NCBI GenBank assembly: GCA_017621695.1
Contig: JAGASP010000127.1
Coordinates: 2,681 to 66,680, forward strand
Source of the DNA: Clostridia bacterium
GTDB taxonomy: Bacteria > Bacillota > Clostridia > Oscillospirales > CAG-272
Length of the DNA: 64,000 bases
Direction of reading: 5' to 3'
Shown: piece after piece, positions 20,668 to 41,591 of the stretch
How the letters are laid out: each line of letters starts with the position of its first letter
Numbering within the stretch: the stretch's first letter is position 1
Notes under the pieces: model-generated
Told to the model about the DNA's origin: nothing
Database searches by the model: none
The model's input: only the letters and a program-made list of their open reading frames with translations
Made by a program: the position numbers and the translations under genes

Positions 20668-20676
20668 AAAGGCAAA

Positions 20677-20705
20677 CCGACTCGCAAAAACGCGGGTCGG
20701 TTTTG
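20677..20705. terminator. Bidirectional hairpin terminator
   Basis: CCGACTCGC, loop aaaaa, GCGGGTCGG (one G-U pair), with an A-run before and a T-run after. It lies after the kinase gene and immediately downstream (minus sense) of the orphan rumA-like 3' fragment. Confidence 0.65.
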
Positions 20706-20725
20706 ACTTTTATGAAATTATACCT

Positions 20726-20747
20726 TGGAAAGCAGAACAACCGTCTC
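20726..20747 (-). repeat. 22-bp direct repeat, copy A (orphan 3' end of a RumA-type gene; att-like)
   Basis: The plus-strand sequence TGGAAAGCAGAACAACCGTCTC is identical to 37502-37523. On the minus strand it reads ...VETVVLLSKV-stop (stop at 20720-20718). Confidence 0.85.
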
Positions 20748-20778
20748 GACTGTTGTCCCTAAATGGCAGATAATTTCG

Positions 20779-20849
20779 AAAAGGTAAAATATCGACAAGT
20801 TTTTTGGAAGATAAACCGGATTGACGAGCCATGTTGGTCATGGTATAAT
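20779..20849 (+). promoter_or_regulatory. Promoter module A: upstream box plus TTGACG-N17-TATAAT
   Basis: AAAAGGTAAAATATCGACAA (20779-20798), then GGATTGACGAGC with -35 at 20821-20826, a 17-nt spacer, then GTCATGGTATAAT with -10 at 20844-20849. Box-to-promoter spacing (42 nt) is the same as in module B at 23643-23713. Confidence 0.65.
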
Positions 20850-21167
20850 ACAAATATATTTGTCATTCTAATCCCTTATTTGCAAGATACGTCTTGAAAT
20901 CAAGTCGAAAGTATGCTACAATGTGTAAGAGGAAGCTTGATTTGTACAGCAATACGTTTGATATTTGGTCACCTCTAAAAACGCTCTTGACGGAGAATCC
21001 GTGGTAACTTTTCCGTCATATTTCACATATTTTTCTTCGCGTAGCTCCACTACGCGTGCGAAAAATTGTATCATCTGACGAAAAACTTCCTCACGACTCT
21101 CTCGCCAATAGAGTTTTTAGAGGTTCCCATATTTTTTCAACAAATCCACCGCGAAAGGATTAAGCCT

Positions 21168-22724
21168 ATGAAATACCAAGTATTCTCTGAAAATCAATGG
21201 ATTTATCCCGACACTGAGCTGACATATCCCAATAGCGCCGAGCTGTACGCCCCTCGCGGCGCCGACGTCTGCTTTCAGGTATTGACAGATCATGCGCTGA
21301 AAGGCGGCGAGAACATCACCGCTGAATTTGCCATGGAGGGCTGTGAGGCCGTGGTCTACCAACTCCTGACCGCCACGGTCCCCCTGAACAGCGATGCCAA
21401 AATGCTCTGCACCACCGACTACGAGTCGGTCAAGCATTTCGTCACCCGCAAAGCCCCCTTCGAGGTCTACGAGATCACCCGTCCTCTGGACGAAGGGGAA
21501 ACAGAGGAGGGAAGAGCCGCCTTCTACGTCCGTATCAACGTGGCTGCCGATGCTCCTGTAGGCGTGCTTGAGAGTGACCTAACCATTACCGTAGGAGGCG
21601 AGACTCTGACCGTACCCGTGTCTATCAAGATCTACAGCGTCCAGGTTCCCGCCCTAAAGGACTCCGAATTCCACATGGTCAACTGGATCTACTACGGTCG
21701 CTTGGCAAATGACCACAAGGTGGAGGCCTACTCCGAAAAGTATATGGAAATCCTGGATCGCTATCTGGACAACCAGATCGATATGCGCAACGATTACCTC
21801 ATGATCCCCTCGGGTTCACCCATCCGAGATGATGAAGGGAAGGTCATCGACTTCGACTTTACCGCCGCCGAGTTGGTTGGCAACCGCGCGTTGAAGCATG
21901 GATTTAAGTATATCATGGGCGGTTTTGTGGCACGGTTCAAGGTTTGGGACGACCCCGATCACTTCCTTCTGTGGGACAGAGAGGTCACCGCCTCATCCAT
22001 CGAGGGCTACCGCCAGCTGAAGATCTACTTCACCCGCGCCTATGAATGCATCCGGCGCAACGGCTGGGAGAAGAACTATATGCAGTGCCTGGTAGACGAG
22101 CCCCAATTTCCCAACAGTCTGACCTACCGCGCCCTGTCGGGCATCTGCCGCAAGTGTATCCCCGGTGTTATCATCAACGACCCCGTGGAGTCCTCCGAGT
22201 TGGCGGGCGCCTGCGACATCTGGGTGGTCAAGCAGGCTGTGTTTGAGAAGTACATCGAGGACTATAAACGCCTTCAGGCCTGCGGCGAGACCATGTGGAT
22301 CTACACCTGCGGCTTCCCCGGGGGCTACTGTATGAACCGTATCATCGACCTGCCCCTGACGGCCAGCCGCCTGCCCATGTGGATGTGCTATAAGTACGAT
22401 GCCCCCGGCTTCCTCCATTGGGGTTACCATGTCCACAACCCCGAGGGCCGCTATGACACCAACTACCATCCCGATGGGCTTAACTACCCCGCGGGCAATG
22501 GCCATGTAGTCTACCCCATGGGAGATACCGTCTGGTACGGCGTCCGCGCCCACCTGCAACGAGCAGGTGCGATTGACTACGAACTGCTTCACATCCTGGG
22601 CAAAAAGGACAAGGCCAAGGCTCTTGAGCTGATCCATAAAGTCTGCCGTACCTTTGACGATTACGAGTTCTCCTCCGAGGTGTTGGACAGTGTTCGCCGC
22701 GAGTTGTTGGAGGCCATCGGTTGA
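21168..22724 (+). CDS. DUF4091-type (GH123-like) putative glycoside hydrolase, cytoplasmic
   Basis: Start moved to ATG 21168 (GAAAGGA upstream; MKYQVFSENQWIYPD). The C-terminal pattern PGFLHWGYHV...GNGHVVYPMGD...VRAHLQRAGAIDYELLHIL matches what I recall of DUF4091 (GDG.L.YP...SIR.E.LRDGIEDYEYL). No signal peptide. Confidence 0.55.
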   Translation: MKYQVFSENQWIYPDTELTYPNSAELYAPRGADVCFQVLTDHALKGGENITAEFAMEGCEAVVYQLLTATVPLNSDAKMLCTTDYESVKHFVTRKAPFEVYEITRPLDEGETEEGRAAFYVRINVAADAPVGVLESDLTITVGGETLTVPVSIKIYSVQVPALKDSEFHMVNWIYYGRLANDHKVEAYSEKYMEILDRYLDNQIDMRNDYLMIPSGSPIRDDEGKVIDFDFTAAELVGNRALKHGFKYIMGGFVARFKVWDDPDHFLLWDREVTASSIEGYRQLKIYFTRAYECIRRNGWEKNYMQCLVDEPQFPNSLTYRALSGICRKCIPGVIINDPVESSELAGACDIWVVKQAVFEKYIEDYKRLQACGETMWIYTCGFPGGYCMNRIIDLPLTASRLPMWMCYKYDAPGFLHWGYHVHNPEGRYDTNYHPDGLNYPAGNGHVVYPMGDTVWYGVRAHLQRAGAIDYELLHILGKKDKAKALELIHKVCRTFDDYEFSSEVLDSVRRELLEAIG

Positions 22725-22739
22725 GAAAAGGAGAATGTC

Positions 22740-23528
22740 ATGCATAATTTCTTTTACGATTGGGAACATGATAATGGGCCGGAGTATTTTTCCGTGGATT
22801 CGTATCGTGACCTGACAAGTCCTTTGCATATGCACCGCACCTTTGAACTGATTGCGGTTTCTGATGGTACTTTGAAGGTGCATATTGAAAAGCAGGAATA
22901 TGAGATGTGCGGGGGAGATATGCTTCTTGTCAAGTCCAATTTCGTACACGGTATCAAAACGGACGGAGCAAGCGATGCCACAATTTGCATTTTCTCCCCC
23001 GAGTTGATCGGGGCAAGCTCTCCCTATTTCATGAAGCATCCTTTAACTTCTCCTGTAGTTCGAAACGCCCCCGTAGTATATTGGGAGCTTTTGCGGGGCA
23101 TTGACTCATCCTCGACCACCGGCAAGATAAAGGGCTTTCTGTATAGCGTCTGTGAGATCTTCTACGAGCAACTAGATCTGACTCGGGCGGATTCTCCCAT
23201 GGGACGGAACCGCTTTATCCGAGAGGTTTTACAGTATATAGAGCATAACCTCCAAAAGCCCTGCGCGTTGACCTTGGCAGCAGAAGAACTGGGTTGCTCT
23301 GCCTCCTATTTATCAAGGCTTTTCAGTACTACAGTGGGGATCTCCTTCGCTTCCTACGTGCGCAGCAGAAGAATCAACCTTGCCTGCAACCTTTTAAAGA
23401 ATACCAATGAAAAGATATCTGAAATTATGAATCGGTGTGGGTATACGTCGATTGCAACCTTCAATCATAATTTCAAGGAGCAGATCGGATGCAATCCAAC
23501 CGAATACCGAAAGCAGTGCCATACGTAA
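22740..23528 (+). CDS. AraC-family transcriptional regulator (cupin sensor plus HTH_18)
   Basis: Cupin-like N-terminus (LHMHRTFELIAVSDGTLKVHIEKQEYEMCGGDMLLV). C-terminal double HTH (LTLAAEELGCSASYLSRLFSTTVGISFASYVRSRRINLACNLLKNTNEKISEIMNRCGYTSIATFNHNFKEQIGCNPTEYRK). SD AAAAGGAGA. Confidence 0.9.
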   Translation: MHNFFYDWEHDNGPEYFSVDSYRDLTSPLHMHRTFELIAVSDGTLKVHIEKQEYEMCGGDMLLVKSNFVHGIKTDGASDATICIFSPELIGASSPYFMKHPLTSPVVRNAPVVYWELLRGIDSSSTTGKIKGFLYSVCEIFYEQLDLTRADSPMGRNRFIREVLQYIEHNLQKPCALTLAAEELGCSASYLSRLFSTTVGISFASYVRSRRINLACNLLKNTNEKISEIMNRCGYTSIATFNHNFKEQIGCNPTEYRKQCHT

Positions 23529-23555
23529 CGGTACAGCATGTGAAATCAAACACAC

Positions 23556-23612
23556 AGATTCCCATCGGAAAGCTCGTAACGGACGGAGTTTTTCGATGGG
23601 AATCTTCATTTG
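23556..23612 (+). terminator. Terminator-like long hairpin after the AraC gene
   Basis: AGATTCCCATCG (23556-23567) pairs with CGATGGGAATCT (23594-23605). A T-rich tract follows, and the loop is large (26 nt). Confidence 0.5.
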
Positions 23613-23642
23613 TTTGTACAGAAACAAAGAATTATTCGGTCA

Positions 23643-23713
23643 AAAAGGTAAAATAACGACAAATAAATGTCACATAAAACTGGATTGACGAGCAAATTGA
23701 GTCATGATATAAT
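23643..23713 (+). promoter_or_regulatory. Promoter module B: upstream box plus TTGACG-N17-TATAAT
   Basis: AAAAGGTAAAATAACGACAA (23643-23662), GGATTGACGAGC with -35 at 23685-23690, a 17-nt spacer, then GTCATGATATAAT with -10 at 23708-23713 (TG-extended). Confidence 0.7.
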
Positions 23714-23830
23714 ATATATAGGCTAAAGCTTTTCCTGCTGCATATCGCAGAAGTATTTTGGTCAGAGGAAGCGATACGATAAGCGGTAGGCGTAAGCTGA
23801 AGCTAAAAAATCAAGAAAGGAAATCCCCCC

Positions 23831-26398
23831 ATGAAGAAGCTGCTTTTGATCGCAATTCTCATGCTCGCTCTGGTGATTACCGTTGTGGCTTGTACCGGTG
23901 ACAAAAACCCCGAAGACACCACGATTGGCGATACCACCGTCGAGACTCCTACCGAGACTCCTACCGAGACGCCCACAGAGGCTCCTACCGTAGAGCCTGA
24001 CGATCCCACCGAGGCTCCCACCTCAGAACCTGATGATCCCACCGAGGCTCCCACTATTGAGCCTGAGGATCCCACCGAGGCTCCTACTGCTGAGCCCGAC
24101 GATCCCACCGAGGCTCCTACTGTTGAGCCTGAGGATCCCACTGAGGCTCCTACTGAAGAACCCACCGAGGCTCCTACTGCCGATCCTGCTGATCCTGTGC
24201 TGATGCTGGAGCCCGAGGATCTCAACACGCTGGCCGGTGCCGCCGCGCCTAACGTGAACCAGATTGCCTCCTCTGAGGTCATCACCGAGGGTGACTACAC
24301 CTTCGCACGTCTGACCGCTGCTGCGGGTGGCGACCCCTACTTCGCATTCATTCCTCTGAACAGCAACTACATGCTGCCCCAGTACATGGCAATCTCCTAC
24401 CGTACCAATTCCACCACCGACGGTCAGGTCTTCCTGGGCTCCGGCACCGGTTGGAACGGTCAGGGAGACGTATTCAACGTTGCTTGGAATGAAGGCGATT
24501 GGAACTATATCGTGATCGATCTGTCCGCTCAGGGTTTGACCTCCATCACCGACGGTCTGCTCACCTACGCTCGTCTGGACTTTTTCGCGGGCGATTCTGC
24601 TGAGGGCGACTACTTCGATATTGAGTACATCGCATTCTTCAACACGGCCGAATACGCTGAGGCTTATGCTTTTGCCAAGCATCCTCCTTACATTGATGCC
24701 GACAACCCTGACGCAGGCAAGAAGAATCACTCCTTCGACACCTTCTACGTCAACGGCTCCATGTATTTCCCCGTGGACGGTGGTGCGGGCGATAAGCTGA
24801 CCGCGCAGAATAACACCCTTACCTTCGGTGCGGAGGATGCCCATGATTCTCTTGCTCTCCGCGGCTGGATCGGTTTTGATCAAGCAATCGACAGTTTTGG
24901 TTACTTTATTGATAACTACACCATGGTATACGGTGAGTTCAAGGCCGCTACCGAGGACGGTGTTCTGGCAGCCGGTGGCGCTAATGCTTCCCGTTTCCAG
25001 ATCGATGTTCCTCTTGCTGATCTGGAGGCCGGCGTGCATATGATCGGCTTTGTTGCAAAGCTGGCTGATGGTACCGTCGTTCGTCTCCGTGAAAATCTTA
25101 CCGTCATCATCGTTCCTTATACTGTTGATGAGACTGTTTCTTTGGCAACCGGTCACGGCGCACCCTTCAGCGGCGCTCCCAATAACTACTTTGGTCAGAG
25201 ATTTAACATCGGCGAGAATATCCTGAAGCAGATCACCATCACCGACATGGCCACTTATGCCGATGGCAACGTCAACACCTGGGTTGTTAAGATCTGGAAC
25301 TGGAATACCGACTATGCCACCACAACCGCAGGCGAGCCTCTGTATGTGGCAAACGGCGAAAATCATACTGACAACGCCCCCTTCGTTCTGAACGTTCCCG
25401 TAGAGGCGCTTATCACCGGCGACATCTACTACGAGATCACCTACGTGACCGGTAGCGGATGCTTTACCGGCTGGACTGCCGATAACGTCACCGAGGGCGT
25501 GGAAACCTATGTGGGTGGCGTGATTGCTAACGGAAGCTACAGTTCCTCCATCGTTGTGGGCGTCCCCACAGATGAGTCCGAAAAAGAGACCGTCATCTCT
25601 GTTGTGTTCGGTGAGATCTACACCGATGCGGATAAGGGCACTAAATTTGATGGCAATCTGATCCTTGAAAAGAATCTCGGCCCCACCTACTTCGACGGTG
25701 TTCGTACCGGCGACTGGATGGAGTTTAAGATCAACGTAGAGACTGCAGGCGACTACAACGTTTGCATGGTTTTCGGTTGGCTGGATCACACCGGCGTGTA
25801 TACCATTTTCGTAGATGGCGCAGAGGTCGGTAAGATCGAAAACAAGATCCCCGGTACCGATTGGAGAGCCTGGACGGATTCCTCCTCCATTAAGATCAAT
25901 CTGACCGAGGGTGAGCATACCGTTCGCGTGGTCATGGGCTCTGACGGCCCCAACGTGTATGGCGTCAAGTTTACATACGTTGAGCCCATGCCCGAAAGCA
26001 TTGCTTTGAATAAGCCCATTTCCGCCGACAGCGTTGAGAAGCCCCAGCACGAGGCAATCTACGCCAACGACGGTGATGAGAACACCCGTTGGTGCGGTCT
26101 GCCCAAGGGCGAAGCAAACCTGATTCTTGACCTTGAGGCGGTTTATACACTGGATAAAATTTATCTCCTGCTGGAGAATGCTATGGGCGACTTCACGATT
26201 TCCGTTTCCGAAAATGGTGAGGATTATACCGAGGTTTGCGCCTGCGAGGGCAAGCCTATGTCTCCTGTTGCGTTCACGCTGGAATTTGATATGAACGGTG
26301 CTACCGGCCGCTATATCAAGATTACTCGCAGTGCCGTCGACGATAACGTTGACTACTGGTTCTCCATTTACGAATTGTACGTATATCCCGTTCAGTAA
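23831..26398 (+). CDS. Surface lipoprotein with Pro/Thr/Glu linker, uncharacterised beta-rich modules, CBM6/35-like module and C-terminal F5/8 type C (CBM32-like) domain
   Basis: Signal/lipobox MKKLLLIAILMLALVITVVAC. CBM-like VVFGEIYTDADKGTKFDGNL...GDWMEFKINVETAGDYNV...GEHTVRVVMGSDGPNVYGVKFTYV. Discoidin-like end YANDGDENTRWCG...YIKITRSAVDDNVDYWFSIYELYVYP. Confidence 0.8.
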   Translation: MKKLLLIAILMLALVITVVACTGDKNPEDTTIGDTTVETPTETPTETPTEAPTVEPDDPTEAPTSEPDDPTEAPTIEPEDPTEAPTAEPDDPTEAPTVEPEDPTEAPTEEPTEAPTADPADPVLMLEPEDLNTLAGAAAPNVNQIASSEVITEGDYTFARLTAAAGGDPYFAFIPLNSNYMLPQYMAISYRTNSTTDGQVFLGSGTGWNGQGDVFNVAWNEGDWNYIVIDLSAQGLTSITDGLLTYARLDFFAGDSAEGDYFDIEYIAFFNTAEYAEAYAFAKHPPYIDADNPDAGKKNHSFDTFYVNGSMYFPVDGGAGDKLTAQNNTLTFGAEDAHDSLALRGWIGFDQAIDSFGYFIDNYTMVYGEFKAATEDGVLAAGGANASRFQIDVPLADLEAGVHMIGFVAKLADGTVVRLRENLTVIIVPYTVDETVSLATGHGAPFSGAPNNYFGQRFNIGENILKQITITDMATYADGNVNTWVVKIWNWNTDYATTTAGEPLYVANGENHTDNAPFVLNVPVEALITGDIYYEITYVTGSGCFTGWTADNVTEGVETYVGGVIANGSYSSSIVVGVPTDESEKETVISVVFGEIYTDADKGTKFDGNLILEKNLGPTYFDGVRTGDWMEFKINVETAGDYNVCMVFGWLDHTGVYTIFVDGAEVGKIENKIPGTDWRAWTDSSSIKINLTEGEHTVRVVMGSDGPNVYGVKFTYVEPMPESIALNKPISADSVEKPQHEAIYANDGDENTRWCGLPKGEANLILDLEAVYTLDKIYLLLENAMGDFTISVSENGEDYTEVCACEGKPMSPVAFTLEFDMNGATGRYIKITRSAVDDNVDYWFSIYELYVYPVQ
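23990..24154 (+). repeat. Five tandem 33-nt coding repeats (x-EP-[DE]-DPTEAPT linker)
   Basis: VEPDDPTEAPT / SEPDDPTEAPT / IEPEDPTEAPT / AEPDDPTEAPT / VEPEDPTEAPT. They are preceded by ETPT units and followed by a partial EEPTEAPT. Confidence 0.9.
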
Positions 26399-26469
26399 CG
26401 TCCATCTCCTTAAATGGAAATGTTTGGAGAATTTATTTCTTCCGACGCTCCATTTGACATTCATTTTCG

Positions 26470-26505
26470 GAGGGGGACGCTTGTCCCCCTTCTTTGCCTT
26501 TTTTC
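26470..26505 (+). terminator. Rho-independent terminator
   Basis: GGGGGAC (26472-26478), loop GCTT, GTCCCCC (26483-26489), then a T-rich tract. Confidence 0.7.
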
Positions 26506-26561
26506 GCCGTATTACCCATACCTTGTACGCTCAAGGTTGTCTTTCATCATAAGGAGCGCAT

Positions 26562-29500
26562 ATGAAAAAGCTAAATTTTAAACGAATTCTGGCAGCAACT
26601 CTGGCCGTTTTGCTCATCATGAGCAATTTCGCCGTTCTGCCCGTCATCGCGGAAGACGCGACTTCGGTCAGCGACTCACAAGTAACCGAAATCGTCTTTG
26701 GCGAGATCTTTACCGATGCCGACAAGGGTACCGCCTTCGGCGGCAACCTTTACCTTGAAAAAACCATGGGACCCGTTTATTTCGACGGTGTACGCAACGG
26801 GGACTTCTTTGAATTTGATATCAACATTGAGAAGGCAGGGAACTACGACCTGTGTTTCTCCTTCGGTTGGCTGGACGATACGGGCACCTATAACATTTCG
26901 CTGGATGGCGGTGATCCCGTTACCCTACGCAATACCGTGACGGGTCGCGGTTGGCGAACCTGGTGCGATTCCTCACGTGTGAAGGTCAATTTCACCCAGG
27001 GAAAGCACACCGTCCGTGTCACCATGGGCGGCGACGGCCCCAACCTGTATTCTATGAAACTGATCCCCGAGGGCGTGAATGCCGGGAGTAACGCCCAAAA
27101 TGACGCCGCTTTGCAGGATGAGAATTCTTCTGCCGGAGCCAAGGTGATCTCCTCCAGCGCGGCCATCCAGTTCAATTGCACCGCTACCTTTTTCGCGTTG
27201 GATCTTGCCTCCGCCAGCTGGAACAACAATCTCGGCTCTCTCCGTTTATCCCTGTATAAGTGGGACACTTCCTATGACAAGACCCTGAAGGGCGAGCCTC
27301 TCGCCTCCAAGGACTATATAGATTTCCCCGATAATACAGTCTTGACTTTTAGTTTTGACGATATGGAAGCAGGTGAATATCTGTTGTACATCAAGAATAT
27401 TTCCGAAAATCCCGCCGAGGAGGTGGGCTCTTGGGGTAATGAAAAGCCCCGTGAGAACGTCAGAAGCTACCACGCCGACGCGATCTCGGATTTCTGCCCC
27501 GCTGTGTGGCTGAAGTACAGATCCGACGCGGAAGCACCCTTCGGTCCCATCAGCGACGTGGATCCCAATGCCGTAGAACTGGCTCCCTCCGAGTCCGATC
27601 TCTATCCTTGGGGAGACACGGTGGAATACAAGATGAACGCCGACGCTCTGTACGGTGTGCAGTTCAACGCTACCGCCGACTTCGGAGGCGTTGAAGTCTA
27701 TATCCCCACCGTTCCCGTGGGCGACAACACCTTGACCCTGTCCCTTTATAAGTGGGATGGCAATTACAGTCAAACTGTCAAGGGTGAGCCCTTGACCACC
27801 ACGACTCTCAAAAACGTGAACAGAAGCAGTTGGGCACGTTTGCCATACTCGAAAGCCACCGTGGGTGAATATCTGCTTGTTGTATCCAATGGCACCGAGG
27901 GTATGACCGTCGGCTTTGTGGAGCAGGTCTCCGACAAGGCCAACCATTATCTCTACACTTCCAAAGCTGGCATCAGCCTTGTTGCCCGTACTGTGGGTAA
28001 CGCGGAGGTCACAGTTCCCACCGCCCCCACCGCCCAGGATTTCATCACAAATGATTCTGTTTACTGGGTGGGTACCGACGGTCTTGACCGTGTGCTACCC
28101 AATGCCTCAGAAACGGGTGAGAAGCGCGAAGGGAAGTATGTGGGTATTTTCTACCACACCTGGCACTCTGCCTTCGCCTACCGCGACGTTATCAACGTCA
28201 CCGAGCTGCTCAAGCAGTACCCCGAGGCAAAGAACGATTTCTATCATTCCGCATGGAACGGTCAGACCAACTGCTTCTGGAATGAACCTCTGTGGGGCTA
28301 CTACAACAACGGCATTGACCGCTGGGTACTCCGCAAGCAGGCCGAGCTTCTGGCCGACGCGGGGGTGGACGTGGTGTTCTTCGATAACACCAACGGCACC
28401 ATGAACTTCATCGACGCCATCCTCACCCTCTGCGAGGTCTGGGCAGAAGCCAGAGCCGATGGTGTGAGAACACCGCAGATCTCTGCCATGCTGAATATGT
28501 ATGCCTACAATGAGACGGCCATACAGATCAAGGAGCTGTACGATCGGATCTACTCCAAGGGCCTGTATCAGGATCTGTGGTTCTACTGGGATGAAAAGCC
28601 TTTGTTGCTTGCCTATCCCGAGGAGGTCAAGCGTCTGGAGAACGGCAAGGATATTTACAACTTCTTCTCCTACCGTCCCATCAACACCTCCTACAACGAA
28701 GATCAGGAGCTCATCAAGCAGAGCGAAGTATCCAACCGCATTACCTTCGCGCCTCCCGCAGGCTTCCGTAAGTATACCCAATGGAAGTGGATCTCGGTCT
28801 ATCCTCAGGAGAAGATGTACCTGAAAGGAACGAAGCAGGTCGAGGAGATGTGCGTATGCGTGGCGCAGAATTGGTCGGATAAGCAGGGACTGACCCCCAT
28901 GAACGCGGGCGATATGGTCTTTGGCCGTGGATATACCAACAAGTACGGCGTCAACACCTCGGATGAGGCTGTGATGGCGGGTCTGAACATTGCCGAGCAA
29001 TGGGAATACGTACTCGAAGTTGATCCTACCTTTGTGTATATCACCGGCTGGAACGAGTGGCAGGTGGGCCGCACCACTGAGATGTGGGGCTATCCCAACG
29101 CCTTGCCCGACAACGCCACCGACGGTTATTCCCGTGACATCGAGCCCTCCACGGGTATGTTGAAGGATCATTTCTACAATCAGATGGTGTCCTACATCCG
29201 CAAGTTCAAGGGCATGAATACCCAGCCCGTGTCCTCAGGGGCTGTCAAGGTGGATGCCGCCGCAGACATTGATTGGTCTGCCGTGACCCCCGTCTACCGC
29301 GCCTATGAAGGCAACACCCTCCACCGCGACTATGACGGCTACAAGGATTACCATTACACCAACACCACGGGTCGGAACGACTTCGTGGAGTCCCGAGTGA
29401 CCTATGACACCGAAAACCTTTACTTTATGGTCAAGACCGCCGAGGCTATCACGCCCCACACTGACAAGGCGTGGATGCGTCTCTTCATCGATGTGGTCGG

Positions 29501-30071: not shown

Positions 30072-30122
30072 CTCGAGAGTCTTTCTTTGAAACGTTCCAA
30101 TGCTTATGTGAACCCTTTCTAA

Positions 30123-30156
30123 ATGGGAGCTGCTCCCCCGCCCGTAAGGGTGGGGG
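30123..30156 (+). repeat. 34-nt intergenic repeat/hairpin, copy 1
   Basis: ATGGGAGCTGCTCCCCCGCCCGTAAGGGTGGGGG, identical to 34776-34809. It contains CCCCCGCCC, loop GTAA, GGGTGGGGG (a GNRA-type loop, one G-U pair) and an overlapping GGGAGC-T-GCTCCC palindrome. Confidence 0.9.
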
Positions 30157-30207
30157 CGTAAGCATTGCAAATGAAAAACAGCAAATTTATCGAAAGGAGA
30201 ATTCGTT

Positions 30208-31674: not shown

Positions 31675-31691
31675 GGAATACAAAATAACGT

Positions 31692-34688
31692 ATGAAACAT
31701 CCAAAAAAACGTGGGTGGCGTTCTGCCGTCTGCTATCTTGTTGTTGGGGTTATGATTATGTCTACTGTGATACCCGCTATTTTGCCTCCTCTTAGGAGCT
31801 TTGCAGAGGAAAACAGTTACGAGGCTAAGAAAGCCGCGTATCGCGCAAAGCTCAAAAACGATGACGTGACTACCGATGATCTGCTCATAGGTTCATGGGT
31901 ATCCTTCTATTCTTTTGAGAAGGACAGTTATGAATATCAGTTGGATCAGATGGCTGCGGCCGGTATTAATTTCAATATGTTCCCCCGTGATTTTGGTGCG
32001 GGTGCTATGTATGATGCGGAATATTGGAACAACGTAGAAGAGCAGTATGCCAAACGAAACATGATTTATCTTATGAACGGTAACATGGATGCGGCAAATA
32101 TTGCTATTGGCGTAAAATATGCTGCCGGCAAGGAACATTGCGTCGGTTATCATGTCGTAGATGAGCCCGGCGGTGCAGCTTTACAAGGCGTTGCGGATAT
32201 TATGCGTGAGTACCGCAAAGCAGATCCTGCCCGCTATCCCTATACCAATCTCCTCCCCAGCTATGCGGGAAGCGCTTGGTTAGGAGGATCATATCGAGAG
32301 CACGTTGAGCGTTACGTGGCATTGGTGGGTGCAGAGAACATGGAATACCTGTCCCACGACTTCTATCCCTTCCAATCAAGGGGGAATAACACCGGCATTT
32401 TTGCCGACATGGAAGTGCTTCGCTCGGTAGCCTATGAAAACGGCAAACTTAAAACCCATGCTTTTCCGCAATCGACAGCATGGAACGGTATGCGAATGCC
32501 TAACATTGATGAAATGCGCTGGAACGTTTATGCTTATCTTTCTTATGGCTTCAAGGCGCTTTCTTGGTTCAATCTTGTCTGCCCCGGAAATTCTGACACC
32601 GAGGGTGAGGGATTCCGAGATAGTTTGATCTACAGAGACGGTACCATTCGCGATCCCGAGCTTTTCGCCGCATGGAGCGAATTGAACTGGGAAATCCGAG
32701 GTCTGTCCGATGCGCTCATGAATTTGGATACAGTTCACGCATATCATACAGACAACGCCGTGTCAGGTGTGGAATATTTACCCGCTGACTTCTTTATCGT
32801 CCCCGACGGACGAGCAGACTTTGTCATTAGCTATATGGTAGCCAAAGACGGTACCGAACCCTATATGATGCTTTTCAATAAGTCCCTGCGACGTGGCGCC
32901 GATATGGAGTTCTTTGTGGATCTGTCTACGGGGATTGAAACGATAGAATATCTGGATCCGTATACGGGCGAGTACATTCCCATGGATATTTCGGAGGGAA
33001 AGCTCAGCGATTCTTTTGAGATCGGTCAAGGTAAGCTTTATCGTCTGAAGGGTGACTTCGCGTTGAGCGAAACGCCTCCCGAGGTACCTTCGGTTGATCT
33101 TGCGAGCGGTCTTTACGATGGGCCTCAAAGCGTGACGATCACTCCACCTGTTGAGGGCGCAAAGGTCTATTATACGTTGGACGGTTCGTATCCCACAGCA
33201 GAGTCTACTCTTTATGAAGGTCCCATCACCATCGGTAACACCGGTGAAGCTTCCTTCCACACGCTCCGTGTGGCGACCGTCAGAGGTGCTTCTATTAGTA
33301 AGGTTCTGACTCGCCACTACGTCATCAGCAATATTTCCACAGACGGTTCAGAGGCACATTCTCTTGCCAAAGTACCCATTGATAAGGTGCTTTCTGTGGG
33401 TAATTGGAGTACCTCAGACGGGAAAATTTCACTCAAGGGCGGCGCTGACGATGCATTGTTGAATTTCTTTATAGACACGTCTGTGACCTACGAAAATTTT
33501 CATGCTACAGGCCATTTCCGCTTTAACGAGGGATGCGGTTCAAATGCCTCTGCCGGCTTTTTCATAAAAGCCTCCGAGGGAGATGCTCATCTCTATGTCG
33601 GCATTACGCGAGGAGGTAATCTTAACGTATATTGCAACGGTAAACGGATCCAGCTTCCGGATGTTCAAGGTAAGACCGTAAATGTGTTGGATGGATTCAC
33701 TCTATGTGTAACGCTCGCAGGGAAGCGTCTGCGAATTGAAGCCAACGGACAACTGCTCAGCGAAACCGTATCGGATCAGTTCGCCATCCAAGGTTGTGTA
33801 GGGGTCAATGCTACGGAGAACGGTGTTTTTACCGCCGAATCGGTCTATTTTACACCTTTGGCATCTGCCGCTCCCGAGATACAACTCGCGATGACCAAGG
33901 TACAAGACGATCCCTTGACTCTCGTTGTGAATCGCGGTATCTCCAAAGAGGAACTCCTCGAAAAACTGCCCGAAACGGCCAAGTTTTCAGACGAGGAAGG
34001 AAAAACGGCGGGATATACCTTGACATGGGAAATGGAGGAACTTGATACATCTTCGGGTGGAACGTATGTTCTGAAGGGCTATCCTGACATTCCCGATGGA
34101 AGCTTGACAGTAAATCCTTTACAACTGTCTCTCCGTTGCACGCTTATCATTCTCCATAACCCTGATCGTACTGAGTTAAATGATGCCATTTATCTCATGG
34201 CATCCCTCAGAGAAGAGGATTATTCTCCCGAAACGTGGGCTGAGGCCGAACAAGCTTATGAAAATGCCTTGGGGCTTATGGATGCCGATGTTCCGCAAAA
34301 TGCAGTAACCGTGGCAACCGTGTTCCTAATGGAAAAAATAAACGCCTTAAATCCCACGGGTATTGACTTTACTGCATTGGATGTTGTCATTGCTTCTCTC
34401 AAGGCCTATGATCTGTCGGGGATAAACAACGAAACACGAAACGCTGTTGAACAGATTCTTGCTGAAGCTGAAGCTTTCAGTCGTACAGGTCCCGTGACCC
34501 AGAACGCAGTCAATGATCTGGTCGCCCAATTGACCGCTACCGAGGAAGCTTTGAAAACAGCGGAAACGGTTACCGAAAATAACGTAGAGGAATCTGGTTG
34601 TTCTTCTGCCATGGGGACTACTTGCGCTGGAATTATTCTGACGACAGGTGCCGCTGTGGCGCTTAGGAAAAAGAAAGAAACCCAATAG
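31692..34688 (+). CDS. Giant secreted putative glycoside hydrolase: TIM-barrel-like N-domain, CHB_HEX_C-like, LamG/DUF1080-like, FIVAR-like helices, GC-x-SA/TM/RKKK tail
   Basis: Signal/TM MKHPKKRGWRSAVCYLVVGVMIMSTVIPAILPPLRSFAEE. GYHVVDEPGG and YPYTNLLPSYA...LSHDFYPF (clan GH-A-like by eye). SGLYDGPQSVTITPPVEGAKVYYTLDGSYPT (chitobiase C-terminal-like). PDRTELNDAIYLMASLREEDYSPETWAEAEQAYENA (FIVAR-like). Tail VEESGCSSAMGTTCAGIILTTGAAVALRKKKETQ. Confidence 0.7.
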   Translation: MKHPKKRGWRSAVCYLVVGVMIMSTVIPAILPPLRSFAEENSYEAKKAAYRAKLKNDDVTTDDLLIGSWVSFYSFEKDSYEYQLDQMAAAGINFNMFPRDFGAGAMYDAEYWNNVEEQYAKRNMIYLMNGNMDAANIAIGVKYAAGKEHCVGYHVVDEPGGAALQGVADIMREYRKADPARYPYTNLLPSYAGSAWLGGSYREHVERYVALVGAENMEYLSHDFYPFQSRGNNTGIFADMEVLRSVAYENGKLKTHAFPQSTAWNGMRMPNIDEMRWNVYAYLSYGFKALSWFNLVCPGNSDTEGEGFRDSLIYRDGTIRDPELFAAWSELNWEIRGLSDALMNLDTVHAYHTDNAVSGVEYLPADFFIVPDGRADFVISYMVAKDGTEPYMMLFNKSLRRGADMEFFVDLSTGIETIEYLDPYTGEYIPMDISEGKLSDSFEIGQGKLYRLKGDFALSETPPEVPSVDLASGLYDGPQSVTITPPVEGAKVYYTLDGSYPTAESTLYEGPITIGNTGEASFHTLRVATVRGASISKVLTRHYVISNISTDGSEAHSLAKVPIDKVLSVGNWSTSDGKISLKGGADDALLNFFIDTSVTYENFHATGHFRFNEGCGSNASAGFFIKASEGDAHLYVGITRGGNLNVYCNGKRIQLPDVQGKTVNVLDGFTLCVTLAGKRLRIEANGQLLSETVSDQFAIQGCVGVNATENGVFTAESVYFTPLASAAPEIQLAMTKVQDDPLTLVVNRGISKEELLEKLPETAKFSDEEGKTAGYTLTWEMEELDTSSGGTYVLKGYPDIPDGSLTVNPLQLSLRCTLIILHNPDRTELNDAIYLMASLREEDYSPETWAEAEQAYENALGLMDADVPQNAVTVATVFLMEKINALNPTGIDFTALDVVIASLKAYDLSGINNETRNAVEQILAEAEAFSRTGPVTQNAVNDLVAQLTATEEALKTAETVTENNVEESGCSSAMGTTCAGIILTTGAAVALRKKKETQ

Positions 34689-34775
34689 TCATTTATTTGA
34701 TGAATAAAACAAATTCATCGCACCATTTTGTTGTCTTTTGGAACTTTTGATTTTGTTCATGTCTCTCCTTTTCAT

Positions 34776-34809
34776 ATGGGAGCTGCTCCCCCGCCCGTAA
34801 GGGTGGGGG
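34776..34809 (+). repeat. 34-nt intergenic repeat/hairpin, copy 2 (terminator-like)
   Basis: Identical to 30123-30156. Here the stem extends to CTCCCCCGCCC/GGGTGGGGGAG and is followed by TTTTC. Confidence 0.9.
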
Positions 34810-34929
34810 AGTTTTCAAAAAAGACATCTCAAATATGTGCTGCGATATACGCTATCCCGTTGTTTTAGTTATATGGTATAAATATAAAAATAATAGGCGG
34901 AAAATGATTTTCGTTCAAAAAGGAGACCT

Positions 34930-37194
34930 ATGAAAAAAACTTGTATTTCGAAGGGCTGGAGTATTCATTCCCCCCATTATCAGGGCCCGATTGATTTGCC
35001 CAACGACTATTCCGTAACTGCTCCGCGTGATAAAAATGCCCCGGGAGGCGGTGATAACGGCTACTTCGTGGGTGGTACGGGACGATATCAAAAGGAACTG
35101 ACAGTGGACGCCCTCTCAAGCCACTATATTTTAGACGTGGACGGCGCGTATATGTGTGCCACGGTCTACTGCAACGGGTACGCCCTGGTCACCCACCCCC
35201 ACGGCTATGCCCCCATTCTGGTAGATCTCACCTCGTATATCCGATCGGGGGAGAACAACACTTTGGACATCGTGACACGAGGGCTTCAGCCCTCCACCCG
35301 CTGGTATTCGGGGGCGGGGGTCTACCGCGATGTGTTCCTGTGGCAGGGAAGCGATATTCGTATCGAGCCTTGGGATAAATTCATCTGCACTCCCACCACC
35401 GACACCGTAAAGGCGTCCTACGAGATCAGCGCGGATCGGGATGCCGAGGTAACGGTCTCGGTGACGGTCTGCGATGGAGATGATGCCATTGTGTGCGATG
35501 CCAAGAACGTTCGCGTTGTTGCCGAGAGGAAAACGAGTGTTGCATTTGAACTGTTCTTACCTGACGTACGTCTGTGGGATACGGAGGATCCCTACCTCTA
35601 TACCCTGCGTACGACGGTCACCGAGAACGGTATCGAAAAGGATACCGACGAGACGGCCTTTGGTGTGCGTGTCTTTACCGTGGACGCAGAGAATGGCCTC
35701 CGCCTCAATGGCAAACCTATGAAGCTCCGCGGCGGTTGCATCCATCACGATCACGGTGTTTTAGGTGCGGCTGATTATCCTGCCGCTTGTCGCCGCAAAA
35801 TATCTTTACTGAAAAAAGCGGGATTCAACGCGGTACGCATAGCGCACAATCCTCCCTCCTTGAACTTGCTGGAAATTTGTGACGAGCTTGGTATGATCGT
35901 GATGGACGAGGCGTTTGATTGTTGGCGGAGAGAAAAGGGCGGTGTGCTCAACTATCACGTATGGTTCGACGATTGGTGGGCGAGAGATATTGCCGCTATG
36001 GTGTTGCGTGACAGGAATCATCCCTGCGTGCTGTTTTATTCGATTGGTAACGAGATTCCCGAAAGCGATGGATTGACAGACGGGGATATTTGGTCAGCTC
36101 GATTGGTCAATGAGGTACGGAAATATGATGCTACCCGTCCTGTGACAGCGGCGGTGTTTCCCAACATAGATCAAGGCGTGTGGGGAGAGCGCACAGAAAG
36201 TTATTTGGCTCCCTTGGATATTTGCGGGTATAATTATCTCTTCTTCCGCTATGCCAAGGATCATGAATTATACCCAAAACGAGTGATCTGGGGTTCAGAG
36301 ACTCAGGTCTTGAATTTCTATCAATCTTGGAAGGCTACTTTGGAGAACAACCATGTGATTGGAGATTTTACTTGGACTGCTTACGATAATCTTGGTGAGG
36401 CGGGAATGGGTAAATATCTTTGGGAACGTGACGGCAAAGTTGAAGGAATCGGTATTGCAGAGTATCCTTGGCGAGCTTGCTATCAAGGGGACTTTGATCT
36501 TTGCGGCTACCGTAGACCCCAGTCTTACTTTAGAGAAGCGGTTTGGATCGGTGGTATTGAGCCTCGCATTTTCACAACACATCCCGAGCATTACGGAGAA
36601 GGGTTTACAGGTACCGGTTGGCATTGGCATGACGTACAGGATACATGGACTTTCGAGGATCATTATATTGGAAAACCCGTTACGTGCGAGGTATATACCG
36701 ATGCAGATGAAATTGTTTGGTTCCTTAATGGTCGGGAGATTGGAAGAAGTACTCCTATTGAGGCTATCGCCACTTTGGATATTCTTTATGAAAAGGGGGA
36801 GTTGGCGGTTGTTGCCTACAAGAACAATGAGATTTGCGGTACTTCTTGCCTTCATACTGCCGGCAAGCCCACCCAAGTGCTTATGAAGGCTGAATCCTCT
36901 ACTTTTAAGGCGGATGCTAGAGATCTATGCTATTTCGATATTACCATAGCAGATGAAAACGGTCATCGTGTGCCAGATGCAAAATCTTTGCTTTATGCCA
37001 CGGTGGAAGGCGGAAAGCTCTTGGGACTTTTCAGCGGTGATCCGGCCAACGAAGATCAATATGGGTCTGATAGCTGTCATGCTTATGAAGGTCGCGCCAT
37101 TGCCATCGTTATGACTGATCAGCCCGGAAACATAAAACTTACTGTCACGAGCCAAGGGCTTTTGGATGGATCTCATATGATCAAGTCAGAATAG
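34930..37194 (+). CDS. GH2-family glycoside hydrolase (beta-galactosidase-like), cytoplasmic
   Basis: SD AAAAGGAGA. Sugar-binding domain (YILDVDGAYMCATVYCNGYALVTHPHGYAPILVDLTSYIRSGENNTLDIV...GVYRDVFL). LWDTEDPYLYTL. Catalytic barrel (LNGKPMKLRGGCIHHDHGVLGAA..., GFNAVRIAHNPPS, HPCVLFYSIGNEIPE). Confidence 0.9.
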   Translation: MKKTCISKGWSIHSPHYQGPIDLPNDYSVTAPRDKNAPGGGDNGYFVGGTGRYQKELTVDALSSHYILDVDGAYMCATVYCNGYALVTHPHGYAPILVDLTSYIRSGENNTLDIVTRGLQPSTRWYSGAGVYRDVFLWQGSDIRIEPWDKFICTPTTDTVKASYEISADRDAEVTVSVTVCDGDDAIVCDAKNVRVVAERKTSVAFELFLPDVRLWDTEDPYLYTLRTTVTENGIEKDTDETAFGVRVFTVDAENGLRLNGKPMKLRGGCIHHDHGVLGAADYPAACRRKISLLKKAGFNAVRIAHNPPSLNLLEICDELGMIVMDEAFDCWRREKGGVLNYHVWFDDWWARDIAAMVLRDRNHPCVLFYSIGNEIPESDGLTDGDIWSARLVNEVRKYDATRPVTAAVFPNIDQGVWGERTESYLAPLDICGYNYLFFRYAKDHELYPKRVIWGSETQVLNFYQSWKATLENNHVIGDFTWTAYDNLGEAGMGKYLWERDGKVEGIGIAEYPWRACYQGDFDLCGYRRPQSYFREAVWIGGIEPRIFTTHPEHYGEGFTGTGWHWHDVQDTWTFEDHYIGKPVTCEVYTDADEIVWFLNGREIGRSTPIEAIATLDILYEKGELAVVAYKNNEICGTSCLHTAGKPTQVLMKAESSTFKADARDLCYFDITIADENGHRVPDAKSLLYATVEGGKLLGLFSGDPANEDQYGSDSCHAYEGRAIAIVMTDQPGNIKLTVTSQGLLDGSHMIKSE

Positions 37195-37371
37195 TATACA
37201 TTATTTCATCATCGAAGTTATCCCCACCGATGAAGGTGGGGAATTATAAACGTTTATTCGCGAAAATCGTTGATTCATATCAGAAAAGAAAGGACTTTGA
37301 AGGTTGACCCAAAATGCGATGGACTAACAGTTTTATTCCGCTACTTATTTCAACCAGCGGCTATACAAAGG

Positions 37372-37417
37372 CAAAAAACGGGCTTGTTCAACCTCGAAAG
37401 CATGGAAGAACAAGCCC
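37372..37417 (-). terminator. Rho-independent terminator downstream of the rumA-type gene
   Basis: GGGCTTGTTC (37380-37389) pairs with GAACAAGCCC (37408-37417). A plus-strand A-run at 37373-37378 gives a T-run after the hairpin on the minus strand. Confidence 0.65.
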
Positions 37418-37478
37418 AATATTTATATCACGCAAAAACGAGCATTTGCGAGAAAAAGAAATTTTCTAACTCCAACAT

Positions 37479-38630
37479 TTAAAAGTAAGAATTTAGACTT
37501 CTGGAAAGCAGAACAACCGTCTCAACATGCCCCGTCCACGGAAACATATCCACCGGCTGTATCTTCCTCACCTTATACCCACCCTTGGTAAGCGTATACA
37601 GGTCCCGCGCCAACGTTTCGGGATTGCAAGAAACGTATACGACCCGTGCGGGTGCCAAGGACAAGAGACTCCGCAGAAACCTCCCACTACACCCCGCTCT
37701 GGGCGGGTCGGTGATGACCACGTCGGCAGACTCGCCGCGCTCGGCCATCTCGGACATGAAATCCCCCGCGTCGGCGGCGGTGAAGGTGGCGTTTGCGATG
37801 CAGTTTCGTTTCGCGTTTTCCGCAGCGTCGGCCACAGCGTCGCGGTTCACCTCCACGCCAATCACCTCTTTTGCACCCGAGGCCATGATCAAACCGATGG
37901 TACCAGTTCCGCAGTAAGCGTCAATGACAGTCTCCTTGCCTGTCAGCGCGGCAAACTCACGCGCCTTGCCGTAAAGGATCTCGGTCTGCACAGGGTTGAC
38001 CTGATAGAAGGAACGGGGGCTGATGCGGAACTCCAAACCGCACAGACGGTCGGTGATGTATCCTTCGCCAAAGAGGACGTGGCTCTCATTTCCTAAAAAC
38101 AGAGGGGTGTCGGTGGGATTGGTATTCCACACCACCGTGGTGATCTCGGGATGGCGGCGGATCAGCTCGTTAGTCATGGACCCCGCCTGCTTGAATTCAC
38201 CCTTGGCGGTCACCAGCACCACCATGATCTGTCCCGACGAAAATCCGCGACGGATCAGTACGTGGCGCAAAAAGCCTTGTCCTGTTTGGAGATCAAAGGG
38301 GCGGATCTTGAAATTCACACACAGCTTGCGGATGGTACCCAGGATAGGCGCGGCGCACTCGTCCTCCAGCATACAGGACTCCACCTCTACGATGCGGCGG
38401 GAGGCAGACTGATACACGCCTGACACCACCTTGCCGCTTTGTGAGCGGAAGGCTGCCTGGATCTTATTGCGATAGTGGGTGGGATCCTCCATGCCGATGA
38501 TCTCGTCCACGTGACTGTATCTGCCAAGGAGCTTGATCAGCTTGGCCTGTTTCAGATGTAATTGTTCTTCATAAGGGAGGTTCTGCAGGGAACAGCCTCC
38601 GCATTTTTTTGCGTAAGGGCAGGGGAGCAT
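37479..38630 (-). CDS. 23S rRNA (uracil-5-)-methyltransferase, RumA/TrmA family
   Basis: N-terminal Fe-S Cys cluster CPYAKKCGGCSLQNLPYEEQL. SAM-binding VIDAYCGTGTIGLIMASGAKEVIGVEVN. VVITDPPRAGC. C-terminus VYVSCNPETLARDL...PVDMFPWTGHVETVVLLSR. Start moved to ATG 38630 (MLPCPYAKK), which avoids overlap with the upstream gene. Confidence 0.88.
   Translation of the reverse strand: MLPCPYAKKCGGCSLQNLPYEEQLHLKQAKLIKLLGRYSHVDEIIGMEDPTHYRNKIQAAFRSQSGKVVSGVYQSASRRIVEVESCMLEDECAAPILGTIRKLCVNFKIRPFDLQTGQGFLRHVLIRRGFSSGQIMVVLVTAKGEFKQAGSMTNELIRRHPEITTVVWNTNPTDTPLFLGNESHVLFGEGYITDRLCGLEFRISPRSFYQVNPVQTEILYGKAREFAALTGKETVIDAYCGTGTIGLIMASGAKEVIGVEVNRDAVADAAENAKRNCIANATFTAADAGDFMSEMAERGESADVVITDPPRAGCSGRFLRSLLSLAPARVVYVSCNPETLARDLYTLTKGGYKVRKIQPVDMFPWTGHVETVVLLSRSLNSYF
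37502..37523 (-). repeat. 22-bp direct repeat, copy B (inside the rumA-type gene 3' end; att-like)
   Basis: Plus-strand TGGAAAGCAGAACAACCGTCTC encodes ETVVLLS(R) on the minus strand and is identical to 20726-20747. Confidence 0.85.
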
Positions 38631-38661
38631 GGTGGGGATCCTTTCGTTTGTGTCGTTATAT

Positions 38662-39366
38662 TCAGTCAATTTCGATATGCCAAAGGATCCTTTGGCACAT
38701 AACGTAAGCGTTTTCAACGGGGATATCGAACTCCGGCCTGTCGATCCATCCGCCGTATCCGTTCAGGACGGTAAAGGTGAAGCCGTTCTCTGTCTTTTCA
38801 ATTTGGGAATCCAGAATCACGCCAACCTTTTCTTTGAAGGTATCCTCTGTGACACCGCAGAAGCGCACCGTGATGATACACCCCCAAGTGGTGTCCAGAG
38901 TGACCGTAAGGTCCGTATCCGTCTCGGTGCAAGCGATGGGCTCAGCATCATGAAAGTGAAAGGATACGGTTTCCAGAGACGCGGCATCGGTTTGGGTCTT
39001 CAGTTCAAACCAATCCGGCAGAGTGATGGGGGCGGTGTAGGGGGCAAAGCGGTTGTCCTCGGTCAAGGGGAGCTTGTCCCCGGCGAGAAACCTCTCCATG
39101 AGGTCTTGGTCATTCAGCAACCAATCCAAACCGCTCCATTTCTTTTGGGCATCGCCGTACTCGTTGGAAACAATGTACAGACTGCGGATCGACCTGGGAT
39201 GCGGATATCCCTCCTCCCACACGCGCAACCAAAGATCCAGCCTTTGCACGTAGGAAAGGGAAGGATCCAATCCGATGGCGGCGGATTCTCCTCCCGCAAA
39301 CTTGATGGCAAAGAGGGGGGATATGTAGGTGGTGTTATCGGCGGTCTTGACAATGGCGTAGGTCAT
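38662..39366 (-). CDS. Hypothetical protein
   Basis: Start moved to ATG 39366 (MTYAIVKTADN; AAAGGAG upstream), downstream of the stop of the preceding gene at 39399. No recognisable motif. Confidence 0.6.
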   Translation of the reverse strand: MTYAIVKTADNTTYISPLFAIKFAGGESAAIGLDPSLSYVQRLDLWLRVWEEGYPHPRSIRSLYIVSNEYGDAQKKWSGLDWLLNDQDLMERFLAGDKLPLTEDNRFAPYTAPITLPDWFELKTQTDAASLETVSFHFHDAEPIACTETDTDLTVTLDTTWGCIITVRFCGVTEDTFKEKVGVILDSQIEKTENGFTFTVLNGYGGWIDRPEFDIPVENAYVMCQRILWHIEID

Positions 39367-39398
39367 GGTAAGGCTCCTTTCTCTGAATTCAATCTCCG

Positions 39399-40727: not shown

Positions 40728-40738
40728 AGCGGTCTCCT

Positions 40739-41563: not shown

Positions 41564-41591
41564 GGTTGGGTTCCTTTCAGAAACGCGGATC

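Follow-up and report, generated by a model that had tools for sequence, protein, structure and literature searches.

A strain-variable carbohydrate island without recognised mobility genes lies between two copies of a RumA-type gene end in a gut Clostridia lineage

Introduction

How does a block of carbohydrate genes, with no recombinase of its own, come to lie within an rRNA methyltransferase gene, at its 3' end? The question is raised by a 64-kb stretch of DNA from an uncultured gut Clostridia lineage (Clostridia bacterium, assembly GCA_017621695.1, contig JAGASP010000127.1, positions 2,681 to 66,680; hereafter the window, numbered from its first letter). A sequence-only reading of this stretch, made by a model without database searches, had proposed that an island of carbohydrate genes was inserted site-specifically into the end of a gene of the RumA family. 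We find that window 20748-37501 is a precise insertion/deletion polymorphism of 16,776 bp (one core copy included), bounded by a duplicated 22-25-bp piece of the RumA 3' end, and that the island probably derives from an integrative element that targets rumA.

In streptococci, rumA is a preferred target of the single serine integrases carried by ICEs (integrative and conjugative elements), by IMEs (integrative and mobilizable elements) and by prophages (PMC4701971). These elements insert 'inside' rumA and are bounded by direct repeats of 2-21 bp, one in rumA and one in the integrase gene, and integration exchanges the 3' ends of the two genes reciprocally; CTn5 of Clostridioides difficile is a further example (PMC4701971; PMC5357655; PMC7168690). 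The premise that the 3' ends of rum/rumA genes serve as ICE sites in streptococci holds, with the nuance that serine integrases, insertion 'inside' rumA and repeats of 2-21 bp are what has been described (PMC4701971). Best known for the resistance ICEs and prophages of streptococci, the RumA 3' end here holds a strain-variable glycan module without mobility genes, which bears on the gain and loss of carbohydrate niches by gut anaerobes. Current concepts are unchanged by the findings: the remnant of a mobile island is real but ordinary, and lies at a known rumA hotspot.

A duplicated gene end bounds the island

Exactly two copies of the 22-mer TGGAAAGCAGAACAACCGTCTC are present in the window, and both read in one direction (20726-20747 and 37502-37523). 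No third copy is found in the window even when three mismatches are allowed, and no match arose by chance in 100 shuffles. The perfect repeat in the same orientation, on which the sequence-only reading was built, is thus confirmed. A repeat finder reports it as 25 bp long, one position being mismatched, with a copy-to-copy spacing of 16,776 bp. The junctions comprise the following features:

19282-20667, plus strand: histidine kinase gene (HAMP and HisKA domains, Pfam), which forms the chromosomal flank on the left and is convergent with RumA's original end
20674-20703, T-runs on both strands: hairpin terminator with a 12-bp stem, used in common by the kinase gene and RumA's original 3' end
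20718-20750, minus strand: displaced original RumA 3' end, V-E-T-V-V-L-L-S-K-V-stop, i.e. ...TTVETVVLLSKV-stop
20726-20747, no strand: distal core copy, attL-like; identity with the attB of the empty site reaches 20750 (25 bp)
20748-37501, no strand: inserted island of 16,754 bp, or 16,776 bp including one core, as defined by BLASTN breakpoints and junction alignment
20748-20775, no strand: island arm beside the distal core, 28 bp between this core and a promoter module
37366-37501, minus strand: island arm beside RumA, source of the tail RSLNSYF-stop (37501-37479) and, at approximately 37372-37424, of a hairpin that carries a minus-strand T-run
37502-37523, no strand: proximal core copy, attR-like; the minus-strand codons ETVVLLS of the intact RumA gene
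37479-38630, minus strand: RumA/RlmD-type 23S rRNA m5U methyltransferase gene, intact, 383 aa, no N-terminal TRAM domain

The product of the intact gene scores 372.6 bits against the NCBIfam equivalog TIGR00479 (rumA; cutoff 183.55) and ends in ...FPWTGHVETVVLLSRSLNSYF-stop, of which the last seven codons come from the island. At the opposite boundary, the displaced RumA end at 20718-20750 is identical to the natural end of RumA alleles from empty sites (P0241, P0244, P0246, P0251 and P0154), and abuts the hairpin at 20674-20703, which comes just after the kinase stop codon. An intact RumA gene with a new tail at one end, and the displaced old 3' end with its terminator at the other, is exactly the arrangement that had been described from the letters.

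The gene described as a kinase is partnered by a response regulator gene, and its 461-aa product from an ATG start (P0001) has exact copies on independent contigs. A longer form from a TTG start (477 aa) was considered and dropped, as it is not on record, whereas the ATG form is.

An unoccupied site in related strains

To find unoccupied sites, exact and near-exact RumA and kinase products were looked up in public assemblies. Two metagenome contigs of the island strain's own species, L091 (ENA ERZ28018951, 31 kb) and L092 (Logan SRR12529367), match the window at 97.3-98.0% identity across 18.5 kb that include both flanks. Their gene order is that of the window on the RumA side (CitMHS, Metallophos, DUF4304, a 234-aa open reading frame (ORF), RumA) as well as on the other side (kinase, response regulator, ORFs of 445, 949 and 508 aa, VWA). 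In both contigs RumA and the kinase gene are convergent and directly adjacent, and window position 37502 is joined straight to 20750 with a single core. By BLASTN, L091 4433-8524 corresponds to window 41579-37486 and L091 8485-18517 to window 20750-10718. In the junction alignment, attB is a single core that has the kinase-side flank of the left copy on one side and the right copy's RumA-side flank on the other. RumA in L091 and L092 ends in HVETVVLLSKV-stop, followed by the kinase terminator. The same empty arrangement is found in L089, a more distant relative (78-88% identity), whose two BLAST segments have exactly 25 bp in common; in L091 and L089 the hairpin found in the window lies directly 3' of RumA.

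The check on relatives that the sequence-only reading had called for was therefore positive three times (L091, L092 and L089), and its geometry of insertion into the 3' end of a gene is borne out by the empty-site breakpoints and the junction alignment. The insertion exchanged the RumA tail and terminator; the old tail now lies, together with its bidirectional terminator, beside the kinase gene. The comparison yields exact attB, attL and attR sequences, together with a predicted attP.

One NCBI metagenome-assembled genome (MAG; proteins MBQ7315576.1, MBQ7315868.1 and MBQ7315870.1) seems to carry both an empty-site RumA (SKV end), on a contig of 30 kb, and island genes, on another contig of 12 kb. 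Either the island has a different location in that genome, or more than one strain may have been binned together.

RumA tails and the diversity of inserts

The RumA tail is KV-stop in the alleles of empty sites and RSLNSYF-stop in three diverged alleles of the island type. The latter come from different samples and differ pairwise by 8-12 residues, and their nearest neighbors are SKV alleles. They do not form a clade: P0245 is closest to the empty allele P0244, and P0253 to the empty allele P0246. Because the RSLNSYF alleles differ from each other and sit nearest to SKV alleles, the presence of the island is not clonal, which fits repeated gain and loss, or recombination. Within one cluster of RumA proteins at 90% identity, four different C-termini are found (SKV-stop, SRSLNSYF-stop, a 94-aa extension and HAECAVCLTRKSQ-stop), and these split at or near ...VLLS.

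More distant relatives carry other DNA at this position. In L085, which matches 11.5 kb of the left flank at 83% identity, and in L087, whose kinase is 88% identical, a displaced ...VETVVLLSKV-stop lies beside the kinase terminator and is followed by different DNA; the homology of L085 to the window ends at 20750. In L003 (RumA 84%), homology to the window is lost exactly at 37502, and a GH38/MFS/AraC gene cluster follows. Downstream of RumA in L093 (90.8% nucleotide identity in RumA) are glycosidase genes (GH31/GH36), NPCBM and AraC genes in place of the island's glycoside hydrolase family 2 (GH2) gene. Approximately 10 kb downstream of RumA, L093 21067-21425 is 98% identical to window 34355-34713, the end of the island gene for a 998-aa protein. 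The islands at this hotspot are mosaic, and some of their cargo looks recently exchanged. Several lines of evidence indicate that the RumA 3'-end motif is a general integration hotspot at which different inserts recur.

The relic core of L085 (11440-11480) differs from the window core at 4 of 22 positions and from the RumA core of L003 (10110-10135) at one. If the L085 and L003 MAGs represent one species, the two copies co-vary per lineage, as independent recent integrations would predict.

RumA alleles with tails homologous to serine recombinase ends

Some RumA alleles (P0248, P0249, P0254, P0257, P0138 and P0139) carry a tail of approximately 94 aa (GNIDSKK...FGMI) after ...VLLSK; the loci that bear on these tails and their matches are L093, L136, L137 and L139. 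This extension matches no Pfam family. In tblastn searches it gave three matches (E = 1e-24 to 1e-36), all at the ends of recombinase genes: the C-terminal end of a large serine recombinase ORF on the human-gut phage contig MT839491.1, which reads ...ETETTVEAVLLLTKLNVERH... followed by the tail; the C-terminal end of a further large serine recombinase in MT835749.1, ending ...NESHTECVIALSKGEIDSKK...; and a frame overlapping the 3' end of a recombinase gene on plasmid pAPRE01 (...THVETVALLSKLNTEHH...). Resolvase, Recombinase and Zn_ribbon_recom domains were confirmed in the matching recombinases (Pfam). Given this homology, the extended alleles are best read as fusions of RumA to a recombinase tail, made by integration at this motif in this lineage. 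Alternatively, the 94-aa tail may be a native part of RumA that was copied into the attP of an element. As alleles with serine recombinase tails belong to the same 90% cluster as the window RumA, the lineage has probably been visited by elements that use the rumA site. An element sitting in rumA is probably what the 94-aa extension indicates, and a RumA 'extension' of ~95 aa could help annotation as a possible mark of elements integrated there. In the Streptococcus suis phage YS162, a fusion of RumA with such a tail is annotated as a single 545-aa methyltransferase.

Further associations of recombinases with RumA-family genes were found in other genomes. The annotated attB of the S. suis phage phiSC070807, GCATCACGTGGAGTGTGT, corresponds to the codons HHVECV of rum, i.e. 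the same motif, a few codons from the core described here. In an Acetivibrio MAG, the gene for a 632-aa serine recombinase abuts or runs into the RumA 3' end. In seven IMG/VR prophage contigs a tyrosine recombinase gene (Phage_integrase) is convergent with a rumA-family gene, 70-150 bp past its stop codon. The S. suis and S. gallolyticus prophage records KT336321, MN270260, OP662530 and MN270258, and Ruminococcus phage PV036450, which are composite or trimmed, provided no clean attR at a far-end integrase.

Search for mobility functions

The proposal that the island lacks a recombinase holds across the ORFs scanned. No recombinase domain, Resolvase and Recombinase included, was recognized in the seven island genes, in the flanking genes, or, elsewhere in the window, in those non-overlapping ORFs that reach 120 aa. 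The same set showed no transposase, relaxase or phage domains, and among these ORFs no serine integrase gene holds the distal repeat. All seven island genes encode CAZyme-related proteins, a regulator, lipoproteins or proteins without assigned function, and none belongs to a conjugation, mobilization or phage module. Since no recombinase, mobilization or phage genes were found, we regard the island as non-autonomous and similar to a cis-mobilizable element (CIME).

A 39-codon frame that runs into the left core was considered as an integrase remnant and rejected, as it coincides for the most part with a duplicated promoter module and its peptide comparison was non-significant. An origin as a transposon or insertion sequence was likewise rejected, because there are no terminal inverted repeats among 23 inverted pairs and no transposase in the scanned ORFs. 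Moreover, a conserved coding motif duplicated over 22 bp far exceeds the usual length of target-site duplications.

Tandem accretion was not seen in the window, where TGGAAAGCAGAACAACCGTCTC occurs only as its two copies. In 87 genome loci, and in 26 more of viral or other origin, the 10 kb downstream of RumA contain no second copy of the RumA end. The left end of the island has no match among PLSDB plasmids, and the island ends match none of the fetched loci save those of the window's own strain and, weakly, L086. The kinase-side 25-mer matches only two distant RumA gene ends in JGI metagenomes.

How the island may have arisen

Taken together, the island is, with a probability of roughly 0.8, a strain-variable, non-autonomous, CIME-like derivative of a rumA-targeting integrative element that arose via site-specific crossover. 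A circular DNA would have recombined with the RumA codons (V)ETVVLLS in a single reciprocal crossover, which would have brought the island into the chromosome and duplicated the core of 22-25 bp. This crossover would have given RumA its seven-codon tail and a new hairpin terminator, and left the old two-codon tail and terminator by the kinase gene. The most likely catalyst would be the site-specific recombinase of a rumA-targeting integrative element. For the type of enzyme we lean, with modest confidence, towards a large serine recombinase; a tyrosine integrase is conceivable but unlikely. After integration, the recombinase and transfer modules would have been lost or replaced, leaving the present CIME-like island. 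It could then move only by a recombinase acting in trans or by an element docking alongside; otherwise its spread would be passive, through homologous recombination in the flanks.

Several observations weigh against this origin. The comparison of composition inside and outside the repeats, which the sequence-only reading had suggested as a check, shows no break: the [G + C] content of the island is 49.8%, versus 49.2% and 55.9% in the flanks, the [G + C] content at third codon positions (GC3) does not change at the repeats, and the tetranucleotide distance lies inside the null range. This absence of a compositional signature is unsurprising if the donors were related Clostridia. The junction of the predicted attP circle, ...TTTAGACTTC-TGGAAAGCAGAACAACCGTCTC-GACTGTTGTCC..., has no exact match in JGI metagenomes, and IMG/VR lacks the 22-mer core. 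Over the 15 nt that precede the core, the island arm at 20748-20775 matches the insert of L087 at 10 of 15 positions and the recombinase gene of MT839491.1 (L137) at 9 of 15; at the protein level the resemblance of the arm to recombinase ends is not significant (0.66-0.72 of shuffles score as high), and we treat it as a lead only. Finally, the cargo from the carbohydrate-binding module (CBM) lipoprotein through GH2 is found with 90-92% nucleotide identity at another locus in L094-L099 (e.g. L095 1-12436), where it adjoins the terminator of a TRAM-containing 577-aa RumA-family paralog without this core. There homology ends at window 37365, and the 137-bp arm on the RumA side is therefore specific to the window configuration; the cargo and the att arms may have separate histories.

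Could the host have built this structure without a dedicated enzyme? In a Campbell-type integration, homologous recombination would have inserted a circle carrying a RumA-like 3' fragment with 22-25 bp of identity. This would suit an island in which no recombinase was found, the cargo that lies beside another RumA-family gene elsewhere could supply RumA-like homology, and the reconstructed attP carries degenerate RumA-like sequence on either side of the core. However, the shortest identity with which RecA usually recombines efficiently is no less than 22-25 bp. The paralog also has the motif HVETVILLSR rather than HVETVVLLS, with nucleotides visibly different from the core (compared by eye, unaligned), and the RumA-side arm of the island has no homology to the paralog locus. 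That different inserts recur at the exact motif, and that two integrase families are found beside rumA-family genes, suggests instead a target defined by an enzyme, and we consider host-mediated integration improbable. An assembly artefact, in which a chimeric MAG contig was joined at the shared 22-mer, is very unlikely. All data are metagenome assemblies, and the Logan contigs of the island strain (L084 and L002) end at window 21013 and 37306, 266 bp and 196 bp inside the island. Both occupied junctions are nevertheless crossed by independent assemblies, including a 138-kb ENA scaffold, Logan L084 and L002, and the consecutive NCBI MAG proteins MBO5043359-66; the RSLNSYF tail is present on three RumA alleles from different samples, and the called genes are continuous across the scaffold. 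The points at which L084 and L002 stop suggest a second genome in that sample with the cargo in a different context.

The remaining alternatives concern the behavior of the island since its insertion. It could be a fixed relic of an old event, whose patchy distribution results from homologous recombination in the flanks and occasional deletion between the repeats. This would agree with island-type RumA alleles that do not form a clade, with flanks that are 97-98% identical between strains, with the mosaic hotspot islands (such as L093, where the end of the 998-aa gene is 98% identical and other genes stand in place of GH2), and with the empty search for the attP junction. Such a relic explains the spread of the island but not its origin, as the duplicated core still requires an integration event. 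Moreover, the window cores are identical at 22 of 22 positions, which fits a recent event or ongoing site-specific exchange, while the relic core of L085 is 4/22 off, and fusions to serine recombinase tails are present in the same RumA cluster. We regard a fixed relic as possible, though somewhat doubtful. Conversely, the island might be a cassette that actively hitch-hikes, excised and re-inserted in trans by the rumA-specific recombinases of resident prophages or ICEs. This would account for the non-clonal spread over RumA alleles and for cargo beside a second RumA-family gene, but we think it rather unlikely. If it were true, carbohydrate modules would circulate among gut Clostridia via the 3' ends of RumA-family genes, the second paralog included.

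Resemblance to elements of other bacteria

The probable origin from a rumA-targeting element places the island beside the serine-integrase elements of streptococci (ICESp2905, phi-m46.1 and phiSC070807) and CTn5 in C. difficile 630 delta-erm, which use the same target family and motif. The RumA tail is exchanged in both cases. The attB of phiSC070807 lies at HHVECV and the core described here at (V)ETVVLLS, and the published repeats are 2-21 bp in length, compared to 22 bp for the island. Unlike the streptococcal elements, the island has no integrase gene that holds the distal repeat, and no conjugation, mobilization or phage genes were found in it. Its cargo is devoted to carbohydrate degradation instead of resistance, and its host is an uncultured gut Clostridia lineage.

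Elements that have lost their integration and transfer genes and kept attL and attR are known as CIMEs (ICEberg 2.0, PMC6323972). An example is CIMEL3catR3, which is paired with ICESt3 in Streptococcus thermophilus. The island has an intact 22-bp repeat, with att sites that are predicted, and no mobility genes that we could find. In contrast to that pair, no cognate ICE is known for the island, and neither accretion nor mobilization has been observed. Elements of the staphylococcal cassette chromosome type (SCC-like or pseudo-SCC) insert at the 3' end of rlmH/orfX in staphylococci by means of the large serine recombinases CcrAB, which some variants borrow in trans. They have in common with the island short direct repeats and a place at the 3' end of a gene for an rRNA methyltransferase, but differ from it in target gene, recombinase subgroup, host and cargo.

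A predicted glycan-degradation module

Between the two cores lie seven genes, all on the plus strand, preceded by a predicted regulatory region:

20776-20856, plus strand: promoter/operator module with TTGACG-17-TATAAT at 20821-20849, near-consensus
20966-21130, plus strand: imperfect hairpin of 165 nt between the promoter and the GH123 start codon (z = -5.6 versus shuffles)
21168-22724, plus strand: GH123-family (DUF4091) glycoside hydrolase (Pfam PF13320, E = 2.4e-25; gene call from L083)
22740-23528, plus strand: AraC-family regulator with a cupin sensor domain and HTH_18
23831-26398, plus strand: CBM lipoprotein with a proline/threonine (PT)-rich linker and CBM6/35-like and F5/8-type-C (CBM32-like) modules (Pfam); signal peptide and Cys in the translation
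26562-30071, plus strand: 1169-aa protein with one CBM6-like module
30208-31674, plus strand: 488-aa lipoprotein, 'extracellular solute-binding protein' in NCBI MAG annotation only
31692-34688, plus strand: 998-aa protein with a CHB_HEX_C_1/Fn3_assoc module
34930-37194, plus strand: GH2 glycosidase, GalA/GalB-like beta-galactosidase, with scores under the equivalog cut-offs

The cargo list that had been drawn up from the translations is essentially right, except that no catalytic domain was recognized in the 1169-aa and 998-aa proteins, which had been called giant enzymes. Likewise, the orphan solute-binding protein (488 aa) has the support of one NCBI MAG annotation but no Pfam, NCBIfam or PDB match, and PDB sequence searches with the 1169-aa, 998-aa and 488-aa proteins returned nothing useful. 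The Pro/Thr/Glu-rich linker of the CBM lipoprotein is encoded by six tandem 33-nt units (window 23939-24187).

A module of approximately 80 bp (TCGAAAAGGTAAAATATCGACAA ... TTGACG-17-TATAAT) is duplicated, with one copy at 20776-20856, before the GH123-AraC gene pair, and the other at 23640-23720, before the CBM-lipoprotein gene. Judged from their sequence and position, the two copies probably represent a putative AraC-controlled regulon signal. As a whole, the cargo appears to be an AraC-controlled glycan-degradation module that is driven by the two copies of this predicted promoter module. A stretch 68% similar to the 165-nt hairpin at 20966-21130 is present in an intergenic region of L086, and an Rfam search over 20000-38800, this hairpin included, gave no match; a leader structure and a palindromic repeat element are both conceivable readings of the hairpin. 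We infer that the left 420 bp of the island, with the promoter module and the hairpin, now act as its regulatory region. A 59-nt repeat (83% identity; 30101-30159 and 34754-34812) with a GC-rich hairpin follows the 1169-aa and 998-aa genes, and looks like a shared terminator or an element of the repetitive extragenic palindromic (REP) type.

Other variable regions in the window

Two single-gene insertions or deletions also occur near RumA: the DUF4304 gene (window 39382-40744) is missing from L003, and the ORF for a 231-aa membrane protein (window 41580-42373) from L091, L092 and L089. Towards the end of the window, positions 58000-64000 have a low [G + C] content (40-48%) and contain ORFs of unknown function, genes for tRNA-Leu and tRNA-Met (61989-62171) and a C5 DNA methyltransferase gene (62869-63951); this may be another accessory region.

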